From positions 476,644 through 540,643 of the forward strand of contig CBDFLM010000015.1 of assembly GCA_965249195.1 (NCBI GenBank): a stretch of 64,000 bases of DNA, in the 5' to 3' direction. Origin of the DNA: Longimicrobiales bacterium (lineage in GTDB: Bacteria > Gemmatimonadota > Gemmatimonadetes > Longimicrobiales > Gaopeijiaceae). The notes under the pieces were generated by a model, which was given only the letters and a program-made list of their open reading frames with translations, made no database searches and was not told the DNA's origin. The position numbers and the translations under genes were made by a program. Of this stretch, positions 4,187 to 21,099 are shown one piece after another (within the stretch, counting starts at the first letter, position 1; each line of letters starts with the position of its first letter).

Positions 4187-5306
4187 TCAGAAGAAGCGCG
4201 CCAGGGAGATCGCGAGCGCGGTGCGCTGCCGCTGCGCCAGAGCCGGCTCCCGGGTCGGATCTCCCGACCATCCGGTGATCGCCGCCTCGACCGAGGTGGC
4301 CGCGCCCACGGTCCAGCCGACCTGGACCGCGTAGCTTCCGATTGCCCGATTCCATGTCGACGAGTAGCTGGGGTCGGAGCCTAAGCTGCTCAGCGACGAG
4401 TTGGCTGCCGACGAGAAGATCGTCCCAGAGGGGAGAGCGGGATTCGTGGTCGACTCCCGACCAACCCTGCTCGACGACGAACGACAGGTACGGCGTGGGG
4501 AACCACTCGCCGCCTACGGTGCCGCGCGCTTCGGTCGTGCCATCCCTCCTTCGCACAGCCCCCTCGGAGTGAAGGACCACGGGCCCGAGGGCCCACTGGA
4601 GCTCGTAGCCCCCTTGCCTGAGCGAGGGCGGGTCGAGAGCGGCCCCGCCGTCGGGGTGAGGGACCGCCCAGAACGACCGGTCGCTTCCGTGCACGTACGT
4701 CAACGCCACGTCCAGCGGACCCAGCACCCGGGACAGGCGCGCGCCCCCACCCGGATGGTCTCCCCAAGACTTGTCGGAGCGGAGTGGCAGGCCTCCCCAG
4801 GTCTCGGTCAGCAGCCCTCCCATATCCGTCGGGCGGGACACCGGGAACGCGACGGTCTCGAGAGAGCCCCACCCGCCGAACAGCGTCAGGCTCACGAGTG
4901 GCTGGCCCAGTCGCCGCCCACGTGCGGCGTCCCAGAAAGTTGCTCTCGGCGTAAGGACGTCGATCGGGCTCCGGAGGGCGGAGAGTCCCCACGGCACGTC
5001 CCCTATGCCGATCCGAAGCTCCGCGGAGCTCCACTGCTCCACGACCGTCACGTCCTCGAGGTTCAAGAGCGAAGCCCCCGCGTCGTCCAGATCCAGCCGG
5101 GCCGACACGGAGACTTGGAGCGACATTCCGAGCACCGACGCTCGGTGTGCCATACGCGCCTGCAGGTAGGGAACCGTCCGCGCTTCGACGCTACCCCCGA
5201 CCCGGACCGCTCCGGCGGCGATCCGGCTCGCCTGACCCTCGACCCCCTCGCAGGCACCGCCCACGACCAGAAAACCGATCGCGAGCCGGAGAAGTCGGGA
5301 GCACAT
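4187..5306 (-). CDS. Putative outer-membrane beta-barrel protein, reading frame disrupted near 4390-4440
   Basis: N-terminal signal peptide MCSRLLRLAIGFLVVGGACEG, then alternating beta-strand-like sequence in the 3846..5306 frame. A different frame carries a canonical OMP C-terminus ...SYAVQVGWTVGAATSVEAAITGWSGDPTREPALAQRQRTALAISLARFF* ending at 4187. The two halves are offset by 1 nt. The tail of the track ORF (3846-4186) overlaps the MFS gene and is junk. Confidence 0.45.
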
Positions 5307-5309
5307 AGA

Positions 5310-6089
5310 TCACCGACCGAGCCGGGCCGGGTCGAAATCACGTGCGGTGAGGCCGACACCCAAACGCAGATCGGTCCATTCCAAGGTGGTGCTTCCTCCG
5401 TCCCTGAGATCGACCATGGTCATCCGCCCCGCGCGCCAGAAGCCGCCGATCTCACGATAGTCCGCGATGTCGAGCGACCTGCGCCTGGCGCCGCCGCCGT
5501 CGAAGTACTCGACCCTGTGCAGCAGGTAGCGCTCCAGGTCGATCCACAGAAGCTGCCTCGGATAGCCGCCCGCTCCGCCCCGGCGGATCCGCTCGACCAG
5601 CACAGCATCGAGACCGGAGACGTCTTCATCCCTGATCCAGCGATACGAGAACCCCTCCATGCTCGGGGGACTCATGTCGTCGAACGTGAAGTGACTTCCC
5701 AGGAAGCTGTCGCTCGCCTGCGAGCCGCTAATCCGTCTCACCCGACGCGCGGTCGGAAGGTAGATCCACTGCGACCGGCTGCCGTCTGCGGCCAGAACGC
5801 TCAGGAACTCCGTCCTGGCGAGATCGGCGGGCCGCTCGAGCACGATCCGGGTCCGGTCCCCGTCCTGGGCCTCGAGGCCGCGCACGCGCATTTTTCGCAA
5901 TCGCTCCCGATCACCGTTCTCGACCCGCATCAGCAAGTCGGCCTCGAAGTCGCCGTATCCACGACTTCGTTGCTCCATCTCACGGACGATCGCATGCCCT
6001 CGCTCCCGGGCATCCTGCGCCGCGGCACCAGGTGCGGCGAGGGCAGCGACGGTCGCAAGCGCCAACAAGCCGGCCACTTTCGCGCTCAT
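5310..6089 (-). CDS. LolA-like outer-membrane lipoprotein-sorting / periplasmic lipid-carrier protein, partner of the MMPL exporter
   Basis: The true start is the internal Met of MSAKVAGLLALATVAALAAPGAAAQ (signal peptide). It overlaps the MMPL stop as ATGA. The MMPL + LolA-like pairing is known from aryl-polyene / flexirubin lipid-export modules. Confidence 0.6.
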   Translation of the reverse strand: MSAKVAGLLALATVAALAAPGAAAQDARERGHAIVREMEQRSRGYGDFEADLLMRVENGDRERLRKMRVRGLEAQDGDRTRIVLERPADLARTEFLSVLAADGSRSQWIYLPTARRVRRISGSQASDSFLGSHFTFDDMSPPSMEGFSYRWIRDEDVSGLDAVLVERIRRGGAGGYPRQLLWIDLERYLLHRVEYFDGGGARRRSLDIADYREIGGFWRAGRMTMVDLRDGGSTTLEWTDLRLGVGLTARDFDPARLGR

Positions 6090-8432
6090 CGAGGACTCCG
6101 CATGAGGAGGGACCGTATGGCGGGCCTTCGAGCGACGGCCCGCAGGAACGCAGGGAATCCGACCAGATCCGCGGCGAGGGCGAGGATGGCGGCGGAGCTG
6201 GTCAGGAGCCCGACCAGGAAGAGGACCTGGAAGCGCGACAACATGAGCACGCTGAAGCCGCACACGACGACCACTGTCACGACAACCAGCGCGGACCCGA
6301 CCTTTCGGAGCGTTTCAGCGAGTACGCGGTCCACTTCGGCAGACGAGCGCACGTTACGCACGAGGGCCCCGAGAAAGTGGATCGTGTCGTCGGCGACGAG
6401 GCCGAACGCGATCGCGAAGACGATCAAAGTGGTCGGCTTGAGATCGAACCCGCCCAAGCGCATGAGCCCGAGCAACATGACGAGCGGAAACAGGTTCGGG
6501 ACGACTGCGACCAGCCCGAGGCGGGCCGAACGGAACATCCACGACATGGCCATCCAGACGAGAACGATCGAGAACGCGACACCGGGCAGGAAGCGCGAGA
6601 CCATCTGGTCCCAGAGCACTTGAGACAGCTTCACTGTCCCGGTCAGCGTGGCGGACCCCCGCGGCGGCGGGAGGGTTGTGAGCTGATCCTCGAGGCCGAG
6701 CAGGAAGGGGGACAACGCGGAGGAGCCCGCGTCCCGCACGAAGAAGACCACCTGGCCGGCCCCCCCCTCACGGAGGTACACGTCCTCCAGAGCGTCGAGC
6801 TCCTGTAGCTCCGAGAGGAAGAGGAGCTCGGCGACCTCCTCCGTGCTGCGAACCGTCGCGGACGTCCGCTCCTCCCCCGACCCGGCAACACCGGCCTCCG
6901 GCACCGACCCGTACGCGGCGCCCAGCTCGTCTACGAACTGGGGCAAACCCACCGAGCCGAGAACGACCGGATCGGCCTCGCCAAATGCCTGGAGCTCCCG
7001 GATCCATCGGAGCATCTCGGCGGAGTGACCGGGACCATCCCCATTCGTCAGGAACACGTTGACCTGAAACACGCCGAATCCGGCATCCTCTATCCAGCGC
7101 AGCTCCTCGAGGATCGGATCCCCGTCCTTGAGGTCGTCGATGAGCAATGCGTGCACACGAAGCCCACCCCCGAGCGCGAGCCCGAGGCCGAGTAGGACGG
7201 CGAATACCCAGTTCGGCCAGCCCGGGTGGATTCTCAGGGTCGCCTCTATCCGGCTCACGACGGAGCGACCGAGTCGCTCGCCCAGCGGCTCGTCGGGACC
7301 GAGATCCGAGGCGAACGAGAGGAGCGCGGGCAACAGGGTCGACGTGACGCCGAAGGCCGCTATCACGGCCAGGCCGGTCACGATCCCGAACTCGTAGACC
7401 AGGGGATTCCGCGTGGCCACCAGCCCCACGAAGCCGAGCGCCGTCGTCAGCGAAGTGAAGAAGCAGGAGCGCGCCAGCGTGGCGAAGGTGGCCACGACGG
7501 CGTCGGGCACCGTACGCCCCCCCCTGCCATCGTTGCCGGGCTCCAATCACGAGGTGCGTCGCGTCGGAAAGGGCCACCACGAGGATGACGATCGGCACCG
7601 CGCTCGTGAGCACGGAAACCGCCCGGCCCACGTAGCCCATGACCCCGAGCGTCAGGAGGATTGCCGGGGCGACGGACGCGAAGCACAGGAGGGCGAGGGA
7701 GAGGCGTTGGAAGTACGCCCAGAGCAGGGAGAGCGAGATGAGGACGCCGAACCCCAACAGCTTCGTCATATCCGCTTCGAGCGCGAGCGGCACCGTCACG
7801 CGTAGGATCGGCAGGCCGTTCAGGATGATCCGGCCCGCTCCCGCGGCTATCTCCTCGATCTCGGCCTGGAGGAAGGCCGTGACCTCCCTGCGCCTTGCGT
7901 CGCTGTCGTCGGCCGGATCCAGATATCCGTGTACGGCGAAGACGGTCAGGTCGTCGTTCCACAGGGTGGCGGCGAAGAGCGGGTGATCCCGACGGGGTTC
8001 GAGCACTTCGTGCAGCCGCGCGTCCGACAGGCCCGTCTCGTCGCGGGGTCGCCGGAGCCGCACCGCCGGCTGACCGTCCTCGAACGTCTCCTCCACGAAT
8101 TCCGTGGATCCGATCCAGCGGACGGATTCCAGCCCGGCCTCGTCGAACGCTCGGGCGAGGCGCTCGAGGGTGCGGTACTCCTGGATACCGAAAGTGCCCG
8201 TGACCTCCAGGAATGCCGACACCTGGAGGTCCTCCTTCGGAAAGTGCCGTTTGAACGCGTCGTACGCCTCCCGATCTCCGCCCTCGAACGCGAAGAATTG
8301 CTGGGCCGAGTAGTCCACGCGGACGTCGCTGGCGCCGACGAGCGCTGCGACGAGCAGCGCCCCGTGGATGACGACCACACTCCCCCGTCGCTGGACCAGG
8401 AGTCGGAAGAACGCCTCGACGCGCGGGTTCAC
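6086..8432 (-). CDS. MMPL / RND-superfamily lipid exporter (HpnN-like), frameshifted at a G8 tract
   Basis: The N-terminal half is real in frame 6768..8432 up to ...ALSDATHLV. The C-terminal half is real in frame 6086..7546 (…TVPDAVVATFATLARSCFFTSLTTALGF…TLLPALL, then a second periplasmic domain plus TM bundle). The frames switch at the homopolymer 7517-7524. Confidence 0.75.
7517..7524. repeat. C8/G8 homopolymer at the MMPL frameshift junction
   Basis: cgtacg-CCCCCCCC-tgcc read directly. It encodes the RGG / QGG junction of the two MMPL frames. Confidence 0.9.
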
Positions 8433-8453
8433 GGTCGCCCCATCAAGGTCGGC

Positions 8454-9827
8454 TCACCCTCCGGCGAGGAACCGGAAGTGGATGGGGAGGACGAGTAAGG
8501 TCGCCGCTGCCGAGCAGGCGGTCTGCAGGCTCATGTTCCAGGGCGGCTCGGCGGGCCAACCAGGCAGTGTGCGAGCAGTCCAGTAGATAGCGGTCGCGGC
8601 GAGCGCGATCGCGGCGGCGGTGGCGACGGACGCCGCCGTCACGCCGCCGCCGAACCACAGGCCGGTGGGAACCACGAGCAGTACCGCCGCGACACCGACG
8701 GCCAAGGTGAAGGGGAGCGAGGTCGGCTCGCGATTGCCCGGCCCGAAAGGCCGAAACTGAGTGAGCGAGACGAGCGACAACTGGCCCGCGATCACGCCGA
8801 TGAAGGGCGCCCGGAACGCCTCGCCCCCGACGAGCCAGTCCGGACCGGCGAGGACACGAGCAGTGACGTCGTGCGTCGCCAGCAGCACGAGCGCGACGAG
8901 GACCGCGTAGATCGTAGCGAGCACCTGATAGTGCGCATCGGGCAGTGGCCCTCGATCTCGTCGGAAGTGTCTCAGGGCCGCGAGCGCGGCCAATGCGATC
9001 GTCGGGGCCACCAGCCAATCGCCACCACCGAACACGTACACGCCGTAGAAGAAGAGCGCCGCGGCCATGACGCCGCTGGTGCGCATGAGCTTGGACCTCA
9101 GGCACAGCAGGCCCAAAAGCAGGATCATCGCCACCAGCGCCGCGAGATGGCCCGCGACGAGGCCCGCCGGCTCCGGGACGAACCGTACGAGCATGTAATA
9201 CGTGGCCAGTGGGACGAGCAGATTGTCGCTACCACGCAGGCTCACTCCCTCGATAAGCGTAACGATCAAGGAGATGTGAATCCCGAGAAGCACACTCGCG
9301 TCGCGGCCGACCTCGGTCATCAGCAGAAGCGGAACGTGCACCACGAGGAACGTGGTCACGAAGAAGGACGCCGAGCCTTCCAGGGACCCACGGTCGCTCT
9401 CGACGGAATACGTGGTGCGGCCGTACGTGGAGCCGAGAAGTGCGGCTGCGGTGTCGGAAACGACGAGCGCCAGCGCCGCCACGAGGTAGAAGACGGGCTG
9501 CTCGTACGCCAGCGTGAAGAGCAGCACCACCGCGAGCGGATAAAACAAACCTCCCTCGGAGCGTCGCGAGATGCTGTGGACGCTCTGGAGCAGACCGAGC
9601 CTGCGCGTACCCCAGATCAGCAGCGCGAAGCAGGAGGCGAGCCATAGCACGGTCCAGCGGCTGGTGAAGATCCATGGGAACGCCAGGACCAGCAGCCCGC
9701 CGACGAAGTGTACGAACTTGCGACTCAGCTCCGGCGGTGGCTTGGCGAACCACCGCCATGCCTCGGCTGCCCCGAAAATAAGGAGGAAGCCCGCGCCGAC
9801 GGCCGCCGCCCGTGGCAGCTCAGCCAT
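8454..9827 (-). CDS. Integral membrane protein: N-terminal CdsA / CTP-transferase-superfamily-like domain (polyprenol / DAG kinase-like) plus about 300-aa multi-TM C-terminal extension
   Basis: Start taken at MAELPRAAAVGAGFLLIFG, an internal Met 8 nt into the upstream BtaA-like gene. N-terminal motif SRKFVHFVGGLLVLAFPW resembles CTP-dependent lipid kinases / cytidylyltransferases. The rest is mostly hydrophobic helices. The family assignment is tentative. Confidence 0.45.
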   Translation of the reverse strand: MAELPRAAAVGAGFLLIFGAAEAWRWFAKPPPELSRKFVHFVGGLLVLAFPWIFTSRWTVLWLASCFALLIWGTRRLGLLQSVHSISRRSEGGLFYPLAVVLLFTLAYEQPVFYLVAALALVVSDTAAALLGSTYGRTTYSVESDRGSLEGSASFFVTTFLVVHVPLLLMTEVGRDASVLLGIHISLIVTLIEGVSLRGSDNLLVPLATYYMLVRFVPEPAGLVAGHLAALVAMILLLGLLCLRSKLMRTSGVMAAALFFYGVYVFGGGDWLVAPTIALAALAALRHFRRDRGPLPDAHYQVLATIYAVLVALVLLATHDVTARVLAGPDWLVGGEAFRAPFIGVIAGQLSLVSLTQFRPFGPGNREPTSLPFTLAVGVAAVLLVVPTGLWFGGGVTAASVATAAAIALAATAIYWTARTLPGWPAEPPWNMSLQTACSAAATLLVLPIHFRFLAGG

Positions 9828-10938
9828 GGCCGAGCACCTCGTCGACGTGAAAGGACTGGTAGAACCACGCCAGGTCGCGCTCGTGGAGCCCGTGAGCGAC
9901 ATCGGAGCGCGGGCGCACGCGACCCGCGAGACCCGGTGGCATCGAGCGCGGCGTGAGCAGATTCCAGTACGCGAGTCGGGCACCCGGCCTGGAACGCTCC
10001 ACAAGCGCACGGTACACGCGCTCGTGCTCCGCCGTACTCATGTACTCGAAGATGTCCGACAGGTTGAATCCGTCGAAGCTCCCCGCCGCCTCCTCGACCG
10101 GGCCCCGGTGTATGCGGAGCCGACCGATCCGCTCTCGCACCAGGGGCCGGAACTCCGGGCGCAGGTACCGAGGCAGTGCCCCCGTCCGGTAGCTGCCGGT
10201 CATGATGCAGGTCAGGTAGGGGTTGGTGTCCGTTGGCAGCTCGATGAGGGCGTGGCGCGTGCGCGCGAGGATCCGACCGGCGACCGGACCGTTGACGTGC
10301 TCGAAGAACGCCGGATCCCTTCCGAGACGACCCATGACGGTCCGACTGAAGAACAACCGGAATAGGAGCCGCCACCTCCAGCTGTCCCAGGAACGACGGT
10401 AGAACGTCTCACGATCATCTCGAGATCGTGGCTGCAGCAGCGCCTCCACCGTTCCCGCCGAGTGGATCAGCGGGAGTACGCGGGCACGAAAGGTCCGGAA
10501 ATAGGCTTCGAACCTCCCCGCGCGTGCTGCACCGGCCTGTACGAGCTCCGGCCGGCCGTCCCAGAAGTCACGGGCGAAGCCCGGCAGGGCCGAACGGAGG
10601 CGCCTGTACGTCGCGACTCGGTCCGTAGAGGGGAACACACCGAGGAAGGGCAGCAGGTCGGCGTCGTCGAGCTCGGTGAACGCCGCAATGCGAATCGCCA
10701 CGCACGCGAGCTGTGCCGGGCTCAAGTCGACGGCGACGACCTCTCGCGGATCGAGGGTCAGAAGAGCCAGCGCGTTGTCTCCCGCCGAGGCGATGCTCAG
10801 GAGCCGGCCGTCCTGCGCGACGGGGGCGAGCGCATCGCACAGGACGTCCGCGTCCTCCCACACGCTGCCGTACCGGATCGCCTCGAAGCTGGCGCGTTGC
10901 TGAATGGGTCGGTCGTCCCGAGCTTCAGCCGCCGTCAT
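9820..10938 (-). CDS. DUF3419 / BtaA-like S-adenosylmethionine:diacylglycerol 3-amino-3-carboxypropyl transferase family protein
   Basis: IRYGSVWEDADVL...LSIASAGDNALALL...REVVAVDLSPAQLACVAIRIA matches the BtaA signature YAQCWEDP...ITSAG.NAL...AVDLNP.Q. Start chosen at MTAAEARDD, preceded by a GGAGG RBS and overlapping the HMGR stop by 14 nt. Upstream Mets at 10977 and 11019 are possible alternatives. Confidence 0.7.
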   Translation of the reverse strand: MTAAEARDDRPIQQRASFEAIRYGSVWEDADVLCDALAPVAQDGRLLSIASAGDNALALLTLDPREVVAVDLSPAQLACVAIRIAAFTELDDADLLPFLGVFPSTDRVATYRRLRSALPGFARDFWDGRPELVQAGAARAGRFEAYFRTFRARVLPLIHSAGTVEALLQPRSRDDRETFYRRSWDSWRWRLLFRLFFSRTVMGRLGRDPAFFEHVNGPVAGRILARTRHALIELPTDTNPYLTCIMTGSYRTGALPRYLRPEFRPLVRERIGRLRIHRGPVEEAAGSFDGFNLSDIFEYMSTAEHERVYRALVERSRPGARLAYWNLLTPRSMPPGLAGRVRPRSDVAHGLHERDLAWFYQSFHVDEVLGHG

Positions 10939-12255
10939 CTCCGCCTCCCCTCTCGGGGGTGATCCTCGCTCCGTCATTGCGAGGGCGACCCAACTGCGCG
11001 TGCGCCTGCGCGAACTCACCTGCGCAGATCGCGGCCGCGATCGAGATCTCTCCCGCGAGAGCCAGCGCTGCGGTGATCTCGGCGAGCTTCGCCGAGCCGC
11101 CGTCTCCGAGGCACCCCAGGATGCGCAGCGACTCGCTTGCGGTGGGAAGGCGCGTCCCGCCGCCGACGCTACCCACGATGAGGTTGGGCAGGGTCACGCA
11201 GCCGTACAGGTCACCGGCCTCGGTGACCTCCATCCGGCTGAGCGCGGTGCTCGCTTCACTGACGCAGGCCACGTCCTGTCCGCAGGCGAGGAAGACTGCG
11301 GTCACGGCGTTCGCAACATGGCCGCTCACACCGATGGACCCGGTCTGCACACCGCCGATCACGCTCATTCGCCAGTACTCGGCGATGCGGTCGGGGGTCG
11401 TTCGGAGGCGGCCCTCGACCAGTGTGCGAGGCAGCAGCACCTCAGCCGTCGCGTGACGGCCGCGGGTATCGAAGAAGCTGAGCGCCGTGCCCTTCTTGTC
11501 CCCCGACATGTTCGACTCGATGACCCAGTAGCGGGGGGTGACCGGCGTGCGCCGCATGACGTCTTCGCACACCGCGGCGGTCGCGAACGTCACCATGTTC
11601 TGGCCCGCGGCGTCGCCCGGATGGAAGTCCAGAATCAGGTAGATGAGGTTCGCCTGGTGCTGGACGCGCATGTTCACGAGCCGACCGTGCCGGGTTCGGC
11701 TCTCGGCGACCTCACGCACTCGATCGAACTCGCCCACGATCCAGGCGGCGAACCGGATCGCTTCGGCCATCGTGTCGAACGCGAAGCCCGGCGCTCTCTG
11801 GACCTGCTCCACCGTCGTCAGGCATGCGGCCCCCCCCCCGCGAGGGTGACGATGCGTGCCCCACGTGAGTAACTCGCGACCAACGCCCCTTCCGACGTGG
11901 CGAGCGGAACGTAGAAGTCTCCGTGGGCGTGCAGGCCGTTCACCCGCAGGGGCCCGACGATCCCGGTCGGGACGCTCGTCATGCCGATGAAGTTCTCGAT
12001 GTTTCCCTCGAGCCCCGCCGCTGTGGGCGGATCGCCCCGGCCACCCAAATGGGGCAGAGGTCCGGCCATCGCCTCGAGGAACCGCAGTCGTTCAGCCGTG
12101 GCCGCCTCGGTGGTGTCTCCGCGTCCGGGGACCGAGGCAGGGATCGGCCGCTCGTCCGCCGGTGTGGGAGCGAGTGTGTCCTGCAGCTTCGCGACGTCGT
12201 TGCCCTTGCTCAGGCGTCGGGCGATCTTGACTGCGCGCTGGTATGGAATGGGCAT
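10925..12255 (-). CDS. Hydroxymethylglutaryl-CoA reductase (NADPH), class I catalytic domain, frameshifted at a G10 tract
   Basis: N-terminal part in frame 11818..12459: start at [15 protein letters not shown], then [21 protein letters not shown]...[28 protein letters not shown]-terminal part in frame 10925..11812: [11 protein letters not shown]...[12 protein letters not shown]...[14 protein letters not shown]. The junction is the homopolymer 11830-11839. Confidence 0.8.
11830..11839. repeat. C10/G10 homopolymer at the HMGR frameshift
   Basis: gcggc-CCCCCCCCCC-gcgag. A run of 11 (or 8) would restore ...[17 protein letters not shown]. Confidence 0.9.
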
Positions 12256-12269
12256 GGGTCGGGGCCGGT

Positions 12270-13553
12270 TCAGGGAATGGGGCTGCGAGAGGGTGTCGCG
12301 ACGGGCCGCAGCCGGAGCGGCATACCGCCTCGGGGTCGTAGGGCGATTCGGGGCTCGAGCGCGGGGCGGAACCCGGGGGCGACCTCGAAACGGACCCGCT
12401 GGCAGAGCGTGGACAGGATCAGCTGCGCTTCGGCGAGGGCGAACGATCCTCCCGGGCACATGCGCTGCCCCGCGCCGAACGGCAGGTACACGCCCCTCGG
12501 CGGGGCGTCCGCGCGGTCGGCAGCGAACCGGGAGGGATCGAACACGTCCGGCTCAGGCCAGTGTCTCGCGTCGCGGTGGAGCAGGAACGGAGACACGGTC
12601 ACGACGGAGCCGGCCGGGACGTCGTAGCTGCCGATGCGATCGGGGCCGGTCGCCCACCGGCTGAACCGCCACACCGCGGGATAGAGCCGGAGCGCCTCCT
12701 TGAACACTTCGGCCGCCGTCGACAACCGAGGGAGGTCGTCGAAGTTCGGAGCGCGGTTGCCGCAGACACGCTCGGCCTCCTCCCGGATGCGATCGTGATG
12801 CTCCGGGTGGAGCGCGAGGAGGTAGAACGTCCACGCCAGTGTGGTCGCGACCGTCTCGTGTCCCGCGACGAACATGGTCATCACTTCGTCGCGGAGATCC
12901 TCGTCGGAAAGCGTCGGGCCGCCGCTTCCGCCGGACCTCGAAGCACGCAACAGAACACTCACGAGGTCGCGCGCGCCGTCCTCGCCCGCCCCCTCGCTCC
13001 GCCGACGGGCGACGACGTCGTAGATCACGTCGTTCAGTACCGTGATGGCGTCGTCGAACCGCTTGCGAGCCGGGGTCGGGAGCGAGGACGCGACGCGCAG
13101 GATCCAACGGAGGCGGTTTCCGCCCGGGAGCAGCTCCAGATACCGGAGCCGTGAAACGGAGAGTCGCTCCACGTGGTCGAAGACGACCTCGGCCGCTCCG
13201 TGGATGTCGCCCTCGCTGAGCTCGAGGTCCGAGCCGAGGACTGTCCGCGTGATGTTGCGGAGCGTGAGCTCGCTCATGCGTTGGTACATGTCCACCGTGC
13301 CGTTCTCGAGCGCGGCTCGAGCTAGCTCCTCGGCCTCGTCGGCCGCGGTCTCGGCCATGACCCGTGCGAACACCGCCAGGCGCTCCTTTCGCAGCACGGG
13401 TTGCACCAGCTTGCGGTGGGTCCGCCAGTGATCCCCCTCGCTCGTCACCAGTCCACGCCCGAGAAATCTCGAGAGCAGCTCGTATCCGGGCCCCTTCGTG
13501 TAGTTCGCCGCGTTCTCGACCAACACGTGCCAGACCGCGTCCGGATCGCTCAC
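12270..13553 (-). CDS. Cytochrome P450
   Basis: 427 aa. Heme-binding loop [20 protein letters not shown] (FxxGxRxCxG), I-helix AGHETVA and the ExxR motif. Confidence 0.85.
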
Positions 13554-13704
13554 CAGGAACTGGCTCAGCCCCCCATCTTCACGTGGACCACGTCCCCATA
13601 CGCATTCTGGAGCCGACGCTGCATGGCCGCCGGGTCCTGGCGCCTGCTCAGCACCGTGCGCACGAAGTCGGCGCCGCGGGGTCCGGGTGCTCGGGAGGAA
13701 CGGG

Positions 13705-14793
13705 TCACGGCGCGACGTCCCGACGCAGGAGCTCGTATCGGCGGACCCAGCGGTCGACCGAGGGCATCCTGTGGGGATCGAGAAGGAAGGCGCTCTTGTT
13801 TCCCACCCGCACGAGTGCCGAGACGAACCTGTGATACCCGTCGCCGATGGCCGCGCGGGCGACCGAGTGCAGCAACGCCGACGACACCCACCTGCCCCGG
13901 GCCGCGGCAGCGACCGCGATCGTCTTGACCACGACCCAACCCCGGTCGGGGAAGGCGAAGACGAAGCCAGTGAGGCGGCCCCGTTCGTCTCTGGCCAAGA
14001 AGGTCAGGTGGCCATCGGCCGCAGCGAGCACTTGGTGGTACAGCCGGTTGAAGAGGTCCTGCGGAAGCGGCTCGAAGAGCGGGTTCTCCCCGAACGCCTC
14101 CATACACATCGGATGGAGCTCCTGCAGCACGCCATCGAAGTCGGAGATGCCCCTGAGCCGCTCGAATCGGAACCCCGAATCCGAAGCGATCTCGAAGCCC
14201 CGACGGGTATGCTCGAAGAAATCTTGGACCGTGTATGCACCGGAACTCGGAAAGTCGAATCCGATCGTCTCGAACGTTTCCGCCGTCTCGAAGCCCAGTC
14301 CACGGAAGCGCTCCGGATACTCTTCCGGCTGGTCCGGCTCCCAGCCGAACGACCGAGGGGCGGAGGACGCGGCGCCGTCCGCGACGACGAAGCGGTAGGT
14401 GAACCAGGTGTTGACGTCGACCGGCGCATACAGCTCTTCCATGCCTTGCTCGGCTGCCCACCCCAGCACGGCTGCCACGATCTCCTCCGTCGCGGCGTCG
14501 CCCAGCGGGCCGCCCTCAGCCTCGTAGAGCCCGAGCATTCCCACGCGCTGGAGCCGCCCACCGCGAAAGGCGGCCGCACGCGCGACGTCGCCGTCCGGTC
14601 CCTCCACGACGAGGAGGAGGGCCGAAGACCGCAGGCCGACGCGGAGAACGGTCGCCAGATACGCGGAGGATTCCCGCCGGTCAGGGGCCCACGCCCGTCG
14701 TAGAGCGGCGCCGGTCCGCTCGAACCGGGCGAGGAAGTCGGTGGGTGGCACGATGCCGGGGGTCGAGGCCCAACGAGCGACGGTGAGGCTCAT
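13705..14793 (-). CDS. Tandem GNAT-fold acyltransferase-like protein (OlsB / MshD-like architecture)
   Basis: 362 aa. Two GNAT-like halves; the C-terminal half has the acyl-CoA motif VAAAARGRWVSSALL. Its start overlaps the upstream PEP-enzyme stop as ATGA. Confidence 0.4.
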   Translation of the reverse strand: MSLTVARWASTPGIVPPTDFLARFERTGAALRRAWAPDRRESSAYLATVLRVGLRSSALLLVVEGPDGDVARAAAFRGGRLQRVGMLGLYEAEGGPLGDAATEEIVAAVLGWAAEQGMEELYAPVDVNTWFTYRFVVADGAASSAPRSFGWEPDQPEEYPERFRGLGFETAETFETIGFDFPSSGAYTVQDFFEHTRRGFEIASDSGFRFERLRGISDFDGVLQELHPMCMEAFGENPLFEPLPQDLFNRLYHQVLAAADGHLTFLARDERGRLTGFVFAFPDRGWVVVKTIAVAAAARGRWVSSALLHSVARAAIGDGYHRFVSALVRVGNKSAFLLDPHRMPSVDRWVRRYELLRRDVAP

Positions 14794-17488
14794 AGGATCC
14801 TCACCTCGCCCTTGCCGGCGTCCATGCGCACACGCTGACCGTTCCGCAGGCGTTCGAGCGGCGAGCCGCCGACCCCGACGATCGTCGGGATACCGAGCTC
14901 CCGAGCGACGACGGCCGAGTGCGAGAGTACGCTGCCCCGCTCGATGATCAGACCGGAGCAGGCCGGGAAGGCGGGGACCCAGCCGGGATCGGTCCGTTCC
15001 GTCACCAGAATCTCACCGTCGAGGCCCTCGGTGTCTTCGAAGCCATGCGCGAGGCGCACCGGACCCTCGATCACGCCAGGGCAGCAGGAGGTGCCTCGCA
15101 GCACGTCGGGGTCCTCGTCGCCGAGTTCGGCCAGGAGGTCGAGGCTCCGCAGCAACGTGGGATGGCGCAGCGTGGCGCCGGCCGCCCCCCGAGTGACGAA
15201 CCGATCCGGAGGGGGGTCCGTGCTCCGGTACTCGTCGAACTCTCGCCGACGCACCTGTGCTAGACCGCCCAGATCGAGGGTGATCGGTCGCCCCTCGACG
15301 AAGGCCAGGATCTCCTCGACCGTCAGGTAGAACACGTCGTGCTCGTCGCTCAGCGCACCGAGCCGCTCCAGGTTTCGACCCACGCCTCGGAAGAGGCGCC
15401 TTACGACGCCAAACGTCCTCGTACGTTCGAATCGCAGCCGCTCCCGATCGCTTACCGCGCGGCGCGCCCAACGCAGGACCGCGAAGTAGATCGGGCGACG
15501 GAGCCCACCCAGGCGGGCACGCACCTGCTCCTCGGCGCCCTCACGAATCGCGGTCTTACGCGCGTTGATCTCCTCCGAAGACGGCACGCCGTTGCGCACG
15601 TACCCCTGCACGCTTGCGACGACCAAGTGCGGTCGATCGTGGAAGTCGAGGGTCTCCAGCTTGAGCTCGTCCACGCAGCGGCAGCCGTACTCCTCGATGT
15701 AGCGCGCCAGATGTGGCCTCAAGTCGGGAGCGAACCCTTCCTGCAGGGCCGCCCACAGGTCCACCGGGTCACCCGTGACGAAGCGCTCGCGAACGGACGG
15801 ATCGCCCTCGACGTGTCGCGCGATCTCGAGCAGAAGACGCATCGGCTCGGTGCTCTTCAGCTCGCCGTGCCCGCAGAGGAGGTCGTTTTGCAGCGACGCC
15901 GCGCCGTCGTCCGGTCCACGTCCCACCCAACTCTCGGTCAGGCTCGCGAGCATCCCGAACGCGATCATGCACCGGGTGTCGTTCACGATCGGAGCGGTCC
16001 AGTGGCGAAGGACCCGGTCCTCCAGGTGGTGGTACAGCGCGACCTGCTCGGTGAGGCTCAGCCTCCCGAGATCCTGCGTCTCGAGGGGACGGCACACGCG
16101 TTCCACCCGCTCCAGGAACCTTTCGTTGGCTCGTACGCCTCCGAACATGCGGGTGCCCAGCCGGAGCAGGAGCGCCATGCGACGCACGGCGCCGTGCCGG
16201 GGCGCCTCGGCGACCACGGAGTCGAAGAGCGGCTGCAGATCGCCCTCCAGCGACTGCTTCACGCCCATCATCGTTTCCATGAACGCGCCGCTCTTGCCGA
16301 CCAGTGGGAACAGCGCCAGCAGGCGATACCAGTTGAGCAGGTTGTAGTACACGCGTCCGCGGACGAGGCCGAGCATGTTGCGGAACATTCACTCGCGCTC
16401 GTGGACGAGGGCGTCGGGGACCCCCATGATCCTGCACGTCTGGAAGTAGACCTCCCGGTACGCCCTGCTCACGTGTGAGAACGTGAGGGGCGTTGTGACG
16501 CCCGCGTAGCTCTCGATGATGTTCGAGTTGTCCCAGATCACCGCGTTCCCGCCGGCGACGCGTTCGTCGAAGAGCGAGTCCGGAGGCAGCGTGGTAATGG
16601 GGCGGGTCTGAAGCGAATAGAGCCGTCCGCCCGAAAAAGCCCACTCGAAGTCCTGGGGCGACCCGAGCTCGCGCTCGAGCCTCAACGACATACGGGCGAC
16701 CTCCCGCACCTGGTCGTTCGTGAGCGAAGGCCGCCTCGAACGGTCGGCTTCGACGGGAACTAGGTGGGTCCCGCCGTTCGGGCCGCGCACGATGGCGCGC
16801 GACTTCTCGGCAATCGTCGTCACGAAATCCAAGGTGGTGCGGTCCACGACGAAGCGGTCGGACTCCAGCTCGCCTCCGACGATGCCTTCGCCCTGGCCCC
16901 ACACGCTTTCCACGACCAGCCCGTCTCGATCGCCCGGGTCGAGCGGGTTCCGCGAGAATGAGACCCCCGCCGAATCCGAATCGACCATACGCTGCACGAT
17001 CACGCCCATACGGGGCACCGTGTCCGCGGCGCCGATCGCGCGACGGTAGGCCACGTTCCGCTCGGAGAAGGCCGACGCCCAGCACCGTCCGATCGCGTCC
17101 AACACCGTGTCCGCGCCCCGCCGGTAGAGGTAGGTCTCGAACTGGCCGGCGAACGAGTGCTCCGTGCCGTCTTCATCCAGACCGCTGGAGCGCACCGCGA
17201 CGTACGCATCGTCGAGCTCGAGCCGGGAGAGCGCGCCACGGACCGCGCTCGCGACCTCCGAAGGCACCCGCAGCGTGAGGGTTCCCGCCGACTGGGCGTC
17301 GGCGGACGAGCCACCCGCGCGACGTACCGCTTCCGCGAGAGAGCGTCGAACGCTTCGACGGCGATGCAGAACCACGGGGGCACGGTGCATCCGATCTTTT
17401 CCAGGGCCGCGAGTCGAGCGGCCTTGCCCCCGGCTCTCACGGATAGGGTGTTGGCAGGCGAGTGCGGGCCGAGGGGCTCGATGCTCAT
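14790..17488 (-). CDS. PEP-utilizing enzyme (PpsA / rifampin-phosphotransferase-like: PPDK_N ATP-grasp plus C-terminal phosphohistidine swivel domain), disrupted by a frameshift near 17333-17344 and an in-frame TGA at 16389-16391
   Basis: True N-terminus MSIEPLGPHSPANTLSVRAGGKAARLAALEKIGCTVPPWFCIAVEAF sits in the 17000..18388 frame. The gene continues in frame 16389..17543 (...AVRSSGLDEDGTEHSFAGQFETY...GVIVQRMVDSDSAGVSFSRNPL...) and ends ...VHERE-TGA-ATG-FRNMLGLVRGRVYYNLLNWYRLL. It then runs to 14790, where the swivel domain GVIEGPVRLAHGFEDTEGLDGEILVTERTDPGWVPAFPACSGLIIERGSVLSHSAVVARELGIPTIVGV is found. The start overlaps the UbiA stop as ATGA. Confidence 0.7.
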
Positions 17489-18381
17489 GCTCCCACCCCC
17501 GTCCACTGCGCCAAGGTCGGAGCGAGGACCTGGGTGAACGCAAAGAGCGCGGCGAGCCCCTCGACCGTCTTGAAGCGCTCGGGGTGCCGCGCGACGTGGA
17601 CGATACCGCAGAGAAGCGCGGCGCCCGCAGGCCACACGAAGACGTGCACGCCGACCTGGAACGCGGAGACGGCAGCTAAAACGACGGCGAGGGTCACCGC
17701 GGTGAACGTCCACCCCGGACCCGACACCGTGAGGTACGTGCCGAGGGCGGGATGAGCGTCCGGGTCGAGCTTGCGGCACAACTCGAGGGCGAAGGCCGCC
17801 CCCAACCCCGTCAAAGCGAACCAGAGGACCGGCGCGGTGAAGGTCGAGGTCGGCACGGCGGCCGCGGTCGCGAACGCGTAGATCGGGACGATGATGACCT
17901 GGTGCGTGACGGCGTACAGGAACGGTCTGCCACCCAGGCAAGTCGGCGCGAAGAACTCGCGGTACATGAGTAGGGCGTAGAGCACGCACAGACCGAAGAG
18001 GGCGCCTGGCAGGACACCGACACCGATCGCGATCGCGGCGGCACCGAGCAGGAGCCCAGTCACGCAGAGCCACAGCCCGGTGCGCGCCCCTCGCTCGCTC
18101 AACAGGCCACGAGGGAGGGGACGCTCGGGGTGGGCTGCGCGATTCTTGTCGAGGTCCTTCAGCTCGTCCATCAGCCGCATCGCCGACAGCAGGCCGGCGA
18201 TCCCGAGGACCGCGATCACGAGGCCCCCCACGTCCAGGCGCGCCCTCACCACGTACTGGGCCGCCGCCTGCGCCGTACCGAACACGAGCAGCGCGGGGAG
18301 CTGGAACCGCTCCCGGACGAAAACGCTCCACGCAGCGAGGAGCGAGCCTGGCGCCCGAGCGGCATGGGACATCTCGCTCAT
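17485..18381 (-). CDS. UbiA-family aromatic / polyprenyl prenyltransferase (integral membrane)
   Basis: 298 aa from MSEMSHAARAPGS. Asp-rich motif LMDELKDLDKNRAAHPERPLPRGLLS (NDxxDxxxD, RPLPSG) plus 8-9 TM helices. The track ORF 17485..19563 upstream of this Met is Arg-rich junk. ATGA overlap with the AMP-ligase stop. Confidence 0.8.
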   Translation of the reverse strand: MSEMSHAARAPGSLLAAWSVFVRERFQLPALLVFGTAQAAAQYVVRARLDVGGLVIAVLGIAGLLSAMRLMDELKDLDKNRAAHPERPLPRGLLSERGARTGLWLCVTGLLLGAAAIAIGVGVLPGALFGLCVLYALLMYREFFAPTCLGGRPFLYAVTHQVIIVPIYAFATAAAVPTSTFTAPVLWFALTGLGAAFALELCRKLDPDAHPALGTYLTVSGPGWTFTAVTLAVVLAAVSAFQVGVHVFVWPAGAALLCGIVHVARHPERFKTVEGLAALFAFTQVLAPTLAQWTGVGA

Positions 18382-19818
18382 CGTCCAATACCTTCCTTGG
18401 ACAGCGTCGCGGAGCGGTCGATCCGGGCGCGGTGCCGCCGATCGCGCACGATCGAGACGTCCACGGCGCCCTCGATCTCCGGAAAGCGGCTCGAGAAGTG
18501 CCAGCCCGCTGCGGCGACGCGGCGCTGGACCGCCTCGCCGTAGAGGATCAGGCGACCGTCCTGACCGCGACGGACGAAGCACGCGCTCGTGCGGAGCTCG
18601 GAATAGAGCCGCTGCTCGAGGTCGAACTCGCCCGCGGCCTGTGACGCCCGACCGGCGTACCACCACCCTTCGTCGTCGGCGATGACACGATCCCCCATGC
18701 TGTGCCAGCGGCGGCCTTCGGTGTCGTAGCGGCTCCCCCCGTTCGCCTGGGCGGATCCTTCGTCCAGTCGGGTGGCGACGTTGTCTCCGCTGACCCAGAG
18801 TCCGTCCGGCTCGGGGCGTGCGGAGATCACGGGGACGGGCACACCGATGAAGAGCGCCTGGAACAGGTTGCGGGCCTGGCTGCGCTCGACGGCTTCGCGG
18901 GCGTCGACCTTCGCGACGGGCTCCGCCTCCGGCCCGCCGTAGACGTGTGTCCACCCGGCGTCTGGCCAGCGCCGGAAGCAGCGCTCGAGGATCCGGCAAT
19001 CGGTCTGTGCTCCTCCTACCACGACCGATCGCAGACCGCTCAGGTGCTCGCGCGTCTGGTCGAACCTCAGCAAACTCAGGAGGAACGCTGGACCCGTGGT
19101 GAGCGTGGCCACCCGGAGCCGCTCCGAGAGGGCCGCGATCCCGCGCAGCTCGGCGCGACCCCAGCGCTTGGGGACGAGCAAAGCGCCTCGGCCCGTGCCG
19201 AGGTGGAGGAGAGCGAGGTTGGGGAAGACGCAGAGGGCGGGCTCGTCGAACCGATCGAGCGGATCGCCAGCGGTGATCGCCTCGTGTAGGCTCCACATGC
19301 ACTTGTGGCTGCGGACGATGCCCTTGGGAGGGCCGGTGGTTCCAGAGGAGAACGTGATGGTGGCCGTGGCATCCGGATCCACCTCTTGGCAATCGAACGT
19401 CCGCGACCCAGCGAAGCGCACGGCGCGGCCGATGTGGATCCATCGCCGAATCCGCCGCGCGGCCGGGACCCGCGCCGCCCAGAGCTGCGCGAGGCGTGAG
19501 CCGATGAAGGCCCTGGGAGCCACCCGGTCGAGCACGTTCTGCACCTCGCGCAGCGGGAGCCACGGCTCCACGAAAACGATGATCACGCCGAGCCCGAGGA
19601 GGGCGAGGATGGTCGCGTAGAGGAGTGGGTCAGGAGGGGACAGCACCAATACCGTGTCGCCCGCCGACAGGCCTTCGCGCTTCGCGAGCGCTTGTGCCCC
19701 CCCCCCCGGCCAATCGGCCGATTTCGCCGAAGGACACCCGGCCGTCCTTGAGCGTCCAAAGCGCCGGGCGGTGCGGTCGTTCCCGCAGGTGCGGCAATAC
19801 CCGGGTCGCGCAGTTCAT
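18378..19818 (-). CDS. AMP-dependent synthetase / ligase (acyl-CoA synthetase / fatty-acyl-AMP ligase family), frameshifted at a G11 tract
   Basis: N-terminus MNCATRVLPHLRERPHRPALWTLKDGRVSFGEIGRLAGGGG in frame 19630..19818. It continues ...AQALAKREGLSAGDTVLVLSPPDPLLYATILALLGLG in frame 18378..19649, with AMP-binding motif TFSSGTTGPPKG. The junction is the homopolymer 19697-19707. Confidence 0.75.
19697..19707. repeat. C11/G11 homopolymer at the AMP-ligase frameshift
   Basis: ttgtg-CCCCCCCCCCC-ggcc read directly. Confidence 0.9.
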
Positions 19819-20396
19819 GGAGCCTCGTTCAGCCGCTTGATGTTGCCGATGTTGCGCCGAAAGATCCGCGCGATCTCGTAGGCAGAGAGGCGCATGAGGA
19901 CTTGGTCGGCCACGCCGGGGTCATCGCGGAAGAAGAGCGTGAAGCTCAGGCGGCAGGCGTCCTCACCCAGGGGTTCGTAGATCTGCTCGGTCACGAGCTC
20001 GCCCCTGGTGGTGGGTGCCCCCTGCACGTTGTAGATGCGGAGTCGACGCCGGAGCGGTCCCACGAGCTCGAAGTACTCGTCCCAGGTCATCCCACTTTCG
20101 TCCGCGTTCTTGAATGACCGTCGAATCGACCCCCGTGCGCCGTCCTTGGCCTCGTGCGGGTTCAAGGGGGTGATGTGATCGACGAAGACGGACCAGGCGC
20201 TCGCGTTCCTCGAGTCGGCGAGGTACGCGAACACGCTCCCGCAGGCGTCTGCGATGTCGACGCCTTCCTTGACGAGCCGGTGGGCGTATCCCGCGTGGTG
20301 CCGGTAGGGACTCCAAAGAAGCACGGCAGCGAACGCGGATAGCGGAAGCACGAGCACCACATACCTGATCTGCGGGCGTCTCACGATCGTCTTCAT
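19815..20396 (-). CDS. SRPBCC (START / Bet v1-like, polyketide-cyclase-type) lipid-binding domain protein with N-terminal membrane anchor; first gene of the operon
   Basis: 193 aa. N-terminal TM YVVLVLPLSAFAAVLLW, then about 150 aa with an alpha/beta pattern typical of Polyketide_cyc2 / SRPBCC. ATGA overlap with the next gene. About 1 kb of lower-GC non-coding DNA lies upstream. Confidence 0.5.
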   Translation of the reverse strand: MKTIVRRPQIRYVVLVLPLSAFAAVLLWSPYRHHAGYAHRLVKEGVDIADACGSVFAYLADSRNASAWSVFVDHITPLNPHEAKDGARGSIRRSFKNADESGMTWDEYFELVGPLRRRLRIYNVQGAPTTRGELVTEQIYEPLGEDACRLSFTLFFRDDPGVADQVLMRLSAYEIARIFRRNIGNIKRLNEAP

Positions 20397-20600
20397 CGCT
20401 GACCGATGGCGCGGGGGATAGGGTTAGGCTGTCACTCCTGGAACCTTCAACGCCACGCGCCGTCAACCCATACGCACAGATACGTAGCCCGTCTTGGGAG
20501 ACTACTTAGGACGTCTCGCCAGTAGCTGCGCTCACTTTCGTAAAACTCGTTGTATTACATGGACTTAGTCGAAACAGCGTGGATTGGGTCAGGAGAGTAA
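20397..20600 (-). promoter_or_regulatory. Putative promoter / leader region of the 13-gene operon
   Basis: Non-coding, lower GC. TTGACG / TTGAAG-like hexamers sit 60-120 nt upstream of the first ATG. No confident -10 element, so this is a region-level call only. Confidence 0.25.
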
Positions 20601-21099
20601 GGGTCGATGGACCCGGCTGGGGAGCTCCCCGCTACTCGCTAGCTCCGGCCACTCCCGGTCCGCCGGCCCGGGAGCGGCTCCTGCGGCCTCGTAGACAAGG
20701 CCACACCGCGAGGTCCGGGGGCCGACGTCGTCGAGTCGGTGATCGAGTGCCGCCTCATCCTTCCGGGCATGCCTTACGGACCCAGGTGCGCTTTCCGCGC
20801 GGCCTCGCTCCTAGGATGTCGGTCCAGTCACAGACCCATCGGGCGATGGTGTCGTTCCTGATTGACATCTTGGGTGGAGCTTGAGGAGCCCCGAGGCTCA
20901 GAGCCGGGCTTCCGGCGACCTCTCCTCATCGTCCAGGCGGACGCATTCAATCGGAGTAGACTGCGGACCGTGATGTTCCTCGTCGGGCTGGACATCGTCG
21001 GTGACAAGCTGATCTGACTCTTCGGACCTCGAGGCTGGGAGCCGCTGTGCTATCGGGGTTACCAACCAGGTGTGCACGTTCTCTGTGCACGAAATGCAG

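Follow-up and report, generated by a model that had tools for sequence, protein, structure and literature searches.

The DNA analysed here is a 64,000-nucleotide (nt) window from a Longimicrobiales bacterium (contig CBDFLM010000015.1, positions 476,644 to 540,643), and its subject is an operon at 4187-20396, coordinates being those of the window, that is predicted to direct the synthesis and export of a lipid. GC content at third codon positions (GC3) by frame, and tblastn searches with a relative's intact orthologues as queries, show that this stretch is a contiguous coding block on the minus strand. It is one translationally coupled, co-directional unit of 12 genes, which reads as 13 open reading frames (ORFs) because an in-frame TGA splits the gene for a phosphoenolpyruvate (PEP)-utilising enzyme. 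An earlier note on this DNA had described a 13-gene operon; the co-directional, tightly coupled minus-strand block stands, but the true count is 12 genes, six of which are frameshifted in the window.

In the direction of transcription, the operon starts with a SRPBCC/START-like protein of 193 amino acids (aa) with a hydrophobic N-terminus (19815-20396), which is a lineage-specific accessory. It is followed by an AMP-dependent ligase of about 477 aa (18378-19818; PF00501, 101.9 bits) and a divergent UbiA-family membrane transferase of 298 aa (17485-18381; PF01040, 43 bits against a cut-off of 34.2), both of them members of the conserved core described below. The Rph/PigC-like PEP-utilising enzyme lies next in two parts: the N-terminal ATP-grasp (PPDK_N) part at 16389-17488 (PF01326, 224 bits) ends at the TGA at 16389-16391, and the 532-aa C-terminal part, with the Rph_4th and PEP-utilisers swivel domains (14790-16388; PF00391, 74 bits), begins at an ATG directly after it. 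A two-domain GNAT N-acyltransferase of 362 aa (13705-14793; PF00583 and PF13480; core) precedes an accessory cytochrome P450 of about 478 aa (12270-13708; PF00067, 277.7 bits). Three core genes then follow, encoding an FcrA-type reductase of about 442 aa that is homologous to class I 3-hydroxy-3-methylglutaryl (HMG)-CoA reductase (HMGR; 10925-12255; PF00368, 346 bits), a BtaA-like, S-adenosylmethionine (SAM)-dependent DUF3419 protein of 372 aa (9820-10938; PF11899, 191 bits), and a kinase-like polytopic membrane protein of 457 aa with a cytidine triphosphate (CTP)-site motif (8454-9827; no Pfam or NCBIfam match). The operon closes with an MMPL/RND (HAE3-like) transporter of about 780 aa (6086-8432; PF03176, PF12349 and PF02460), a periplasmic LolA-like carrier of 259 aa with a signal peptide (5310-6089; PF17131, 152.5 bits; DUF1329, 30 bits) and an outer-membrane beta-barrel of about 372 aa without a Pfam match (4187-5306).

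Pfam was run on frame-repaired window products, and most of the families named in the earlier note were recovered (PF00501, PF01040, PF01326 with PF00391, PF00583, PF00067, PF00368, PF11899, PF03176, and the LolA-like protein as PF17131), but PF01148 and PF03548 were not found. The SRPBCC family PF10604 falls below threshold in the window protein (22.6 against 27.4 bits) and above it in the orthologue from the relative L003 (42.3 bits). At the junctions, ATGA overlaps were read at 19815/19818, 18378/18381, 17485/17488, 14790/14793 and 6086/6089, together with an 8-nt overlap at 9820/9827 between the kinase-like and DUF3419 genes, and the six start/stop overlaps quoted earlier are therefore all real, at 4 or 8 nt. 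There is also a GTGA overlap at 13705/13708, where the P450 GTG start overlaps the GNAT stop, while the reductase and DUF3419 genes share 14 nt at 10925/10938; the remaining intergenic gaps are merely 3-21 nt. Promoter and terminator scans gave no match upstream or downstream of the operon, and no riboswitch was found with Rfam.

The distribution of these genes was determined using the kinase-like protein as a marker, which gave 80 loci in GTDB species representatives; seven metagenome loci retrieved before were added, and all 87 were scored with the operon proteins. A core of seven genes (FcrA-like reductase, UbiA, Rph-like enzyme, DUF3419, kinase-like protein, GNAT and AMP-ligase) is complete in 30 of these 87, and contig boundaries truncate many of the rest. 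The complete loci come from Gemmatimonadota, Eisenbacteria, Planctomycetota, Verrucomicrobiota, Victivallales, a metagenome-assembled genome (MAG) labelled Geobacter, a Xenobia MAG and a MAG of 35% GC, and partial sets were seen in Thermoanaerobaculia and Kiritimatiellae. Gene order and orientation vary between loci while three sub-modules are kept, namely reductase-DUF3419-kinase, UbiA-Rph and GNAT-ligase, and the reductase gene always adjoins the DUF3419 and kinase-like genes, not the ligase gene. MMPL-type genes lie beside the core in 18 loci, including lineages outside the clade of the window. The co-occurrence in other genomes that the earlier note had proposed as a check is strongly borne out. 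The LolA-like and barrel genes were found only in five loci from the clade of the window (L001, L003, L013, L015 and L037), a P450 gene in five loci including L013 and L016, and the SRPBCC gene only in L001-L003. A tblastn search against PLSDB also detected the complete core, followed by a P450 gene, in the cultured Brevibacillus laterosporus B9 (NZ_CP011076.1, about 463.5-474.7 kb), and again on a 137-kb plasmid of the cultured Roseinatronobacter sp. S2 (NZ_CP121116.1). In the latter, the RefSeq names are 'UbiA family prenyltransferase', 'PEP/pyruvate-binding domain-containing protein', 'DUF3419 family protein', 'AMP-binding protein' and, for two products, 'hypothetical protein'. As the core is present in two cultured strains, it is open to direct genetics and lipidomics.

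Several other observations were made in the course of this survey. Sixteen loci (L072-L087), in MAGs labelled Enterobacterales, Proteobacteria, Rickettsiales and Myxococcota, mostly carry a short protein corresponding to the kinase-like N-terminal domain with a GNAT and an AMP-ligase. This three-gene variant is without the reductase, DUF3419, UbiA and Rph-like genes, and may be a distinct, simpler system. Locus L010 (PBUX01000067.1, 'Methanobacteriota archaeon RS442') has the gene order of the Gemmatimonadetes MAG SP311 (L009) and near-identical identities to the query proteins, and is probably mis-binned; the labels Burkholderiales, Actinomycetota and Bacteroidota for the MAGs of L033, L036 and L040 deserve equal caution. 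A GT-C/PMT_2 gene was considered as a conserved accessory and rejected, being found only in L004 and L005. Single-linkage clustering of neighbouring ORFs was uninformative due to spurious and overlapping ORFs in this high-GC DNA.

The six frameshifts were located by tblastn with the intact orthologues of the relative: in the ligase gene at about 19700, within a run of 11 G at 19697-19707; in the PEP-utilising gene at 17342; in the P450 gene at about 13570 (13568-13574); in the reductase gene at about 11835, within a G10 run at 11830-11839; in the MMPL gene at about 7520, within a G8 run at 7517-7524; and in the barrel gene at about 4336. Six frameshifts and an in-frame stop within 16 kb, with three of the frameshifts in G8-G11 runs, could indicate that the cluster is a decaying pseudogene array, or that its poly-G tracts are phase-variable contingency loci, and that no intact proteins are made from the operon. 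The comparison with other assemblies makes this very improbable. Two metagenome contigs from ENA, L001 (1.47 Mb) and L002, encode a DUF3419 protein 100% identical to that of the window and match it at 99.6% identity over 20.6 kb (blastn), yet five of the frameshift sites differ between them and the window. The G run at 19697-19707 is 11, 10 and 9 bases long across the three assemblies; between assemblies G10 is matched by G7 at 11830-11839, G8 by G7 at 7517-7524 and G8 by G5 at 6760-6767, and single bases differ at 17342, 4339 and 4954. Different genes are broken in each: a T at 17342 that is deleted from the window is present in L001 and L002, whose ATP-grasp ORF of 366 aa is intact, and their MMPL gene is intact as an ORF of 780 aa, while their barrel gene is broken elsewhere. 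Differences of the same kind occur outside the cluster, at 3700, 3100 and 1762.

In L003, a k141-named contig from a separate assembly with 75% protein identity to the window, all 12 genes are intact and the PEP-utilising enzyme is fused into one protein of 900 aa. Homology with L003 (...LAGGAAC...) predicts G8 at 11830-11839, a length that neither long-read assembly shows; the in-frame lengths expected at 19697-19707 and 7517-7524 are G10 and G7. Coding-type GC3 continues on both flanks of each frameshift. Runs of at least eight G or C number 4, against 4.05 in shuffled sequence, and their positions are not conserved in L003, and poly-G contingency loci were rejected on these grounds. Because the frameshift sites differ between near-identical assemblies and L003 is intact, we attribute most of the window's frameshifts to indel errors of long-read assembly, many of them in homopolymers, and not to decay; the operon is probably intact and functional in the cell of this uncultured Gemmatimonadota bacterium. 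The P450 frameshift and the TGA could be real lesions, as all three assemblies share them. The TGA is directly followed by an ATG, the corresponding codon in L003 is TGG (Trp) and the position is variable in other orthologues, and the split may be a genuine two-ORF form of the enzyme specific to this species.

The identity of the reductase determines how the pathway is read. The earlier note had taken it for an HMGR feeding the mevalonate and isoprenoid route, and its nearest solved structure is indeed the archaeal class I HMGR 6hr7, but the L003 orthologue, from which the NCBIfam scores quoted for this enzyme were taken, reaches 305.3 bits with TIGR00533, under the cut-off of 441.8. Forty-one cluster-linked reductase homologues from many phyla were aligned with human HMGR and 6hr7, using human numbering. 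The catalytic residues Glu559, Lys691, Asp767 and His866 are invariant in all 41 and present in the window protein, and Ser565, Arg568, Arg590, Asn686, Asp690, Lys692 and Asn755 are likewise invariant in the 41. In every one of these homologues, however, Ser684 is replaced by Glu or Asp, Lys735 by Met, Leu, Ile or Val, and Leu862 by Phe; Ala751 is also replaced, by Gly, in all 41. The window protein has Glu684, Met735 and Phe862, and the two copies from cultured strains show the same pattern of acidic 684, hydrophobic 735 and Phe862. Lys735 is the residue that forms a salt bridge to the HMG carboxylate (PMC9500038).

A recent precedent accounts for these replacements. FcrA, an HMGR homologue described in a 2025 study, converts long-chain (at least C14) acyl-CoA to fatty alcohol with NADPH. 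It leaves HMG-CoA unreduced and is insensitive to simvastatin, and it differs from HMGR in the change of Ser684 to Glu, the loss of the Lys that binds the HMG carboxylate and a bulky residue in place of Leu862 (PMC11948995). According to the same study, 57-77% of bacterial 'class I HMGRs' are FcrA, and the enzyme, known from wax-ester synthesis and suggested for ether lipids, must often serve pathways beyond wax esters; UbiA, DUF3419, dolichol kinase or PEP-type neighbours are not mentioned there (PMC11948995). The cluster reductases share with the FcrA of Natronomonas pharaonis and 'Ca. Promineifilum breve' (PMC11948995) the class I HMGR fold and catalytic residues, the acidic residue 684, the lost HMG-carboxylate Lys and the bulky residue 862, and the AMP-forming ligase of the cluster parallels FadD for FcrA. 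They differ in having no N-terminal alkyl-carrier (Lad) domain, and in that their genomic partners are DUF3419, kinase-like, UbiA, Rph-like and GNAT genes and not WS/DGAT. As its diagnostic residues match published FcrA enzymology, the operon reductase most likely makes a fatty alcohol and not mevalonate, and the role given to it in the earlier note is not supported. Action on a cationic substrate or on an aminocarboxypropyl carboxylate was also considered and set aside, the FcrA precedent explaining the same substitutions.

The DUF3419 protein matches PF11899 across positions 3-382 of the 385 in the model, so a full-length match is shared with BtaA, and JGI names many of its relatives BtaA. 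Its identity to annotated DUF3419/BtaA-family proteins from rhizobia and Chondrinema is only 23-29%, whereas it is 43-75% identical to orthologues of the cluster type. Neither the cluster DUF3419 proteins nor the kinase-like proteins have an NCBIfam family. The gene is always beside the kinase-like gene, with the two adjacent in 66 loci. BtaA, the SAM:diacylglycerol 3-amino-3-carboxypropyl transferase, acts on a lipid primary alcohol, which fits the place of DUF3419 beside an alcohol-forming reductase. The suggestion that a BtaA here makes a betaine head group is therefore kept as to family and weakened as to product, given the low identity and that no BtaB-like methyltransferase is among the 12 operon products or in the seven-gene core; where the BtaA/BtaB betaine-lipid (DGTS) pathway uses the N-methyltransferase BtaB, the GNAT is the likely amine modifier instead.

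The kinase-like protein had been assigned to the CdsA superfamily, and this found no support: PF01148 was not found, hhalign against E. coli CdsA gave a probability of 0.1, and the AlphaFold2 model (pLDDT 85.6, approximately 18 helices by DSSP) had no fold match in the PDB. No Pfam match was obtained in 27 members even at E<=10, nor any in NCBIfam. JGI names its relatives dolichol or phytol kinase, and the motifs of such enzymes are present. The published CTP-site motif of dolichol kinase is DXXAXXXGXXXGX8KKTXEG (PMC13586052), which is also carried by the yeast CTP-dependent diacylglycerol kinase (PMC2459266), and an R-K-x-x-H clamp has been described for the Plasmodium prenol kinase (PMC10849223). 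In the cluster family, 78 of 79 members have D..A...G...G-x10-[KR][ST].EG, both cultured strains included, and 78 of 79 have RK..H; in a set of 1.84 billion proteins, 404 representatives of the family were counted at E<=1e-30. Both motifs and the polytopic membrane character are held in common with DOLK/Sec59, VTE5, PfPolK and yeast Dgk1, but in the cluster family the spacer has one more residue, conservation covers a single one of the two basic positions, and a C-terminal half of about 240 aa is added. With the published CTP-site motif and the clamp present, the N-terminal 215 or so residues are best read as a CTP-dependent lipid-alcohol (dolichol/phytol) kinase domain, followed by a further multi-helix membrane half.

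Of the remaining core enzymes, the AMP-ligase has its best NCBIfam match in 'fatty acid CoA ligase family protein' (NF006754, E 2.4e-38), and its nearest solved relatives are, weakly (E about 1e-11), beta-amino-acid adenylating enzymes; it is most likely a FadD-like partner of the reductase. Profile searches of the GNAT protein against the PDB gave phosphinothricin N-acetyltransferase (E 6e-6), NAA10 and EctA (E 1e-4). The substrates of phosphinothricin acetyltransferase and EctA are 4-substituted 2-aminobutyrates, with the shape of the 3-amino-3-carboxypropyl group. In 25 orthologues of the UbiA protein, the first Asp-rich motif (R..DE.KD...D) is conserved. The nearest solved structure is digeranylgeranylglyceryl phosphate synthase (DGGGPS; 6m31, E 0.002), and this weak similarity is the sole link to the archaeal ether-lipid pathway of glycerol-1-phosphate (G1P) dehydrogenase, geranylgeranylglyceryl phosphate synthase (GGGPS), DGGGPS and CarS; neither GGGPS nor G1P dehydrogenase is encoded in the operon or the seven-gene core. 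The PEP-utilising enzyme shares with Rph and with the prodigiosin ligases PigC and RedH the PPDK_N, Rph_4th and PEP-utilisers architecture, and the catalytic-His motif of its swivel domain (LSHSA) is conserved. It scores far below the equivalog cut-offs of all three (Rph 317 against 999, PigC 303 against 1300, RedH 329 against 1350 bits), does not reach that of PEP synthase, and is also below that of the nearest NCBIfam model (NF004881, 790.7 against 883 bits). Its orthologues are single proteins of 875-972 aa; the enzyme differs from Rph, PigC and RedH in being split in two ORFs here and in that its gene is always paired with a UbiA gene.

The families and barrel fold of the proposed export module, an MMPL transporter with a LolA-like carrier and an outer-membrane barrel, are supported. 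The MMPL protein matches PF03176 (38.8 bits) and the sterol-sensing-like PF12349 (32.3 bits), and reaches 132 bits with TIGR00921 (cut-off 351.9). As in MMPL/HpnN exporters and DUF1329/DUF1302-type modules, an inner-membrane RND/MMPL pump, a LolA_like (also DUF1329) carrier and a barrel are encoded together, but the HpnN models themselves are far from reached (TIGR03480, 57.7 against 751.85 bits; NF052374, 19.5 against 1100 bits). The barrel belongs to a nine-member family without a Pfam model, and is modelled as an 18-strand porin fold (OprD/Occ, AlgE or Wzi-like) with an N-terminal signal sequence and a C-terminal aromatic residue. For the P450, the best NCBIfam relatives are terpene-oxidising P450s, well under their cut-offs.

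Taken together, these data describe a widely conserved seven-gene core for lipid biosynthesis with lineage-specific tailoring and export genes, and the likely product, judged from sequence, is a fatty-alcohol-based amino lipid that is exported here to the outer membrane. In the proposed route, the AMP-ligase would convert a long-chain carboxylic acid to its CoA thioester, as its family suggests, and the FcrA-type reductase would then reduce this with NADPH to a primary fatty alcohol, as its diagnostic residues and the published enzymology of the clade indicate. The DUF3419 protein would move the 3-amino-3-carboxypropyl group of SAM onto the alcohol to give an ether-linked homoserine-type head, and the kinase-like protein would phosphorylate lipid alcohol with CTP; both are assigned to the lipid alcohol because they are always beside the reductase and because their characterised relatives act on lipid primary alcohols. 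The GNAT would N-acylate the new amine, probably with acyl-CoA from the ligase step. The Rph/PigC-like His-phosphotransferase may add a phosphate to the substrate of the adjacent UbiA protein, or otherwise activate it, and the divergent UbiA may attach or transfer a prenyl or alkyl group, the sequence of the steps from DUF3419 to UbiA not being fixed. In this lineage the P450 would oxidise the product, the SRPBCC protein may bind it, and the MMPL pump would pass it by way of the periplasmic LolA-like carrier and the 18-strand barrel to the outer membrane. For the route as a whole, we put the probability at roughly 0.45.

Plant phytol salvage, as known for these families, offers the same logic: an alcohol is converted to a phosphate by the kinase VTE5, to a diphosphate by a second kinase, VTE6, and is then transferred by the UbiA-type VTE2. 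Here the second phosphoryl transfer would be made by the PEP-utilising/Rph-type His-phosphotransferase and not by a DUF92 kinase, and the alcohol would probably come from acyl-CoA and not from chlorophyll. The route can be sharpened to a widespread, so far unrecognised bacterial ether-type amino lipid pathway, in which the FcrA alcohol is ether-linked to an N-acylated, SAM-derived homoserine head and/or is made into an alkyl diphosphate by the CTP-dependent kinase and the PEP-utilising-type phosphotransferase for alkyl transfer by UbiA, with a dedicated outer-membrane lipid in Gemmatimonadota. By analogy, such a transfer would be archaeal-style ether-bond chemistry on fatty-acid-derived chains. 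In this exact form the proposal is an unlikely one.

A number of points weigh against the fatty-alcohol-based amino lipid route. The role of UbiA is its weakest link: the second Asp-rich motif (DxxxD) is not conserved and a conserved E..RK stands there instead, and saturated alkyl diphosphates are ill suited to the carbocation chemistry of classical UbiA enzymes, so that a prenyl donor from the cell's own pool may be used. The nearest named relatives of the P450, the terpene oxidisers, hint at an isoprenoid part, and its frameshift, like the TGA, is common to the three assemblies. Position 735 in the cluster reductases is Met, Leu, Ile or Val and position 862 is Phe, whereas published FcrA have mostly small residues and Trp, and the substrate may therefore not be a straight chain of C14-C18. 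As the DUF3419 protein is so far from annotated BtaA (23-29% identity), aminocarboxypropyl transfer is predicted at the level of the family, and the kinase assignment comes from motifs and JGI names where the Pfam, NCBIfam, hhalign and fold searches had no match. Finally, at 9389-9390 the window reads DRGSLEG in the kinase-like protein where L001 and L002 read DRRSLEG, which places a Gly at the basic CTP-site residue conserved in 78 of 79 members; the Gly stems from an error in the consensus or else is an inactivating replacement.

In the model of the earlier note, a genuine HMGR supplies mevalonate-derived isoprenoid, UbiA prenylates, BtaA builds a betaine head and a prenylated betaine-type lipid is oxidised and exported. 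The scores for PF00368 (346 bits), PF01040 and PF11899, the intact HMGR catalytic residues and the terpene-oxidase relatives of the P450 agree with it, but neither another mevalonate gene nor a BtaB-like methyltransferase is in the operon or core, the reductase is below the TIGR00533 cut-off, and enzymes in which the HMG-binding Ser684, Lys735 and Leu862 are replaced, as in all 41 homologues and the window, do not reduce HMG-CoA (PMC11948995); we consider this model quite improbable. A more serious, though still unlikely, alternative is that the core makes a small diffusible specialised metabolite, such as a prenylated N-acyl amino-alcohol or amino-acid derivative, which is secreted by the MMPL, LolA-like and barrel proteins. 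It would suit the presence of the core beside a P450 gene in the Gram-positive B. laterosporus, which has no outer membrane, the plasmid copy in Roseinatronobacter, the patchy distribution and the pigment-forming relatives PigC and RedH of the Rph-like enzyme. The FcrA-type reductase, the lipid-kinase-like domain, the membrane-bound UbiA and the SRPBCC, MMPL and LolA-like proteins suggest instead a hydrophobic, membrane-associated substrate.

The dolichol-kinase motif would also be expected if the kinase-like protein made polyprenyl phosphate and the core built a polyprenyl-phosphate-linked donor that decorates a component of the envelope, with UbiA acting like decaprenyl-phosphate phosphoribosyltransferase. 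The UbiA superfamily does include enzymes that join a diphosphate-activated group to polyprenyl phosphate, and at one locus from Eisenbacteria a GT-C-like PMT_2 gene stands after the core. That gene is confined to L004 and L005, however, no glycosyltransferase or sugar-activating gene belongs to the core, and the FcrA-type reductase is left unexplained, which makes such a donor improbable. Lastly, the AMP-ligase and reductase might alone cooperate, their fatty alcohol going into wax esters or into ether lipids of the classical type, in keeping with the known and suggested roles of FcrA (PMC11948995), while the other genes are unrelated neighbours. This is highly unlikely: the seven genes co-occur across many phyla in rearranged order with preserved sub-modules, the reductase gene is always beside the DUF3419 and kinase-like genes and not the ligase gene, and WS/DGAT, AGPS or PlsC-like genes are absent from the operon and core families, the flanks not having been specifically searched for them.

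No description of the cluster was found in literature searches or in Pfam and NCBIfam scans, and the statement that it corresponds to no named pathway holds, there being neither a paper on it in those searches nor an NCBIfam family for its DUF3419 and kinase-like proteins. It is thus an uncharacterised lipid biosynthesis and export cluster built from known kinds of enzyme, FcrA among them only recently recognised, and comparative support for it is solid. One conserved pathway would link FcrA-type 'HMGR' homologues, bacterial DUF3419 proteins other than BtaA, the kinase-like family and Rph-like 'PEP synthases', in many phyla known mainly from metagenomes. It corrects an annotation trap, as 'HMG-CoA reductase' in these loci is most likely no sign of mevalonate or isoprenoid metabolism, and gives FcrA a concrete context outside wax esters of the kind that its discoverers said must exist. 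The product may belong to a lipid class not described before, which in Gemmatimonadota would be placed in the outer membrane by a dedicated export route.

Upstream of the operon are an IS3-type transposase gene (rve, HTH_21; 21533-22579) with a possible orfA at 21070-21402, a 200-aa tyrosine-recombinase fragment at 22576-23178 that overlaps the transposase gene by 4 nt, and a tRNA-Gln gene at 23324-23394, and GC falls to 0.61-0.62 over 21070-23394. The insertion sequence, integrase and tRNA previously noted beside the operon are thus present, and the insertion sequence may have truncated an integrase gene. The cluster is scattered unevenly over the phyla, its modules are rearranged and one copy lies on a plasmid, which fits an accessory, mobile cluster. 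Downstream of the operon lie a convergent major facilitator superfamily gene and then MarR and CheR genes.

Two features were seen in the DNA just before the first gene. At 20440-20540, compared with positions of about 430-520 in L003, the pattern CTAAGT...CTACGT...(T/A)ACGTATGGG is the sole conserved stretch in otherwise unrelated upstream regions, and is a candidate operator or promoter element. Further out, a 152-bp segment at 20621-20772, which is 225-376 bp upstream of the first operon start codon, is inverted relative to L001 and L002 (blastn). Its junctions in the window are the palindromes GGCATGCC and GGGGAGCTCCCC, and a look for long inverted repeats on its flanks gave none. The segment could be a regulatory element that inverts, or the difference could be an artefact of long-read assembly.

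Elsewhere in the window, the very long homopolymers C10 at 41377-41386 and G15 at 42474-42488 probably mark more places where this assembly has a wrong run length or a frameshift. On the minus strand, 56333-60271 carries MacB/FtsX-type permease and HlyD-type membrane-fusion genes, and two of the ORFs there, 57612-59051 and 58868-60271, are in different frames and share about 180 nt, which may be due to an over-extended upstream start or to another frameshift. A bacterial small signal recognition particle RNA was detected at 43669-43765 (Rfam RF00169, 40.1 bits, at the gathering score).

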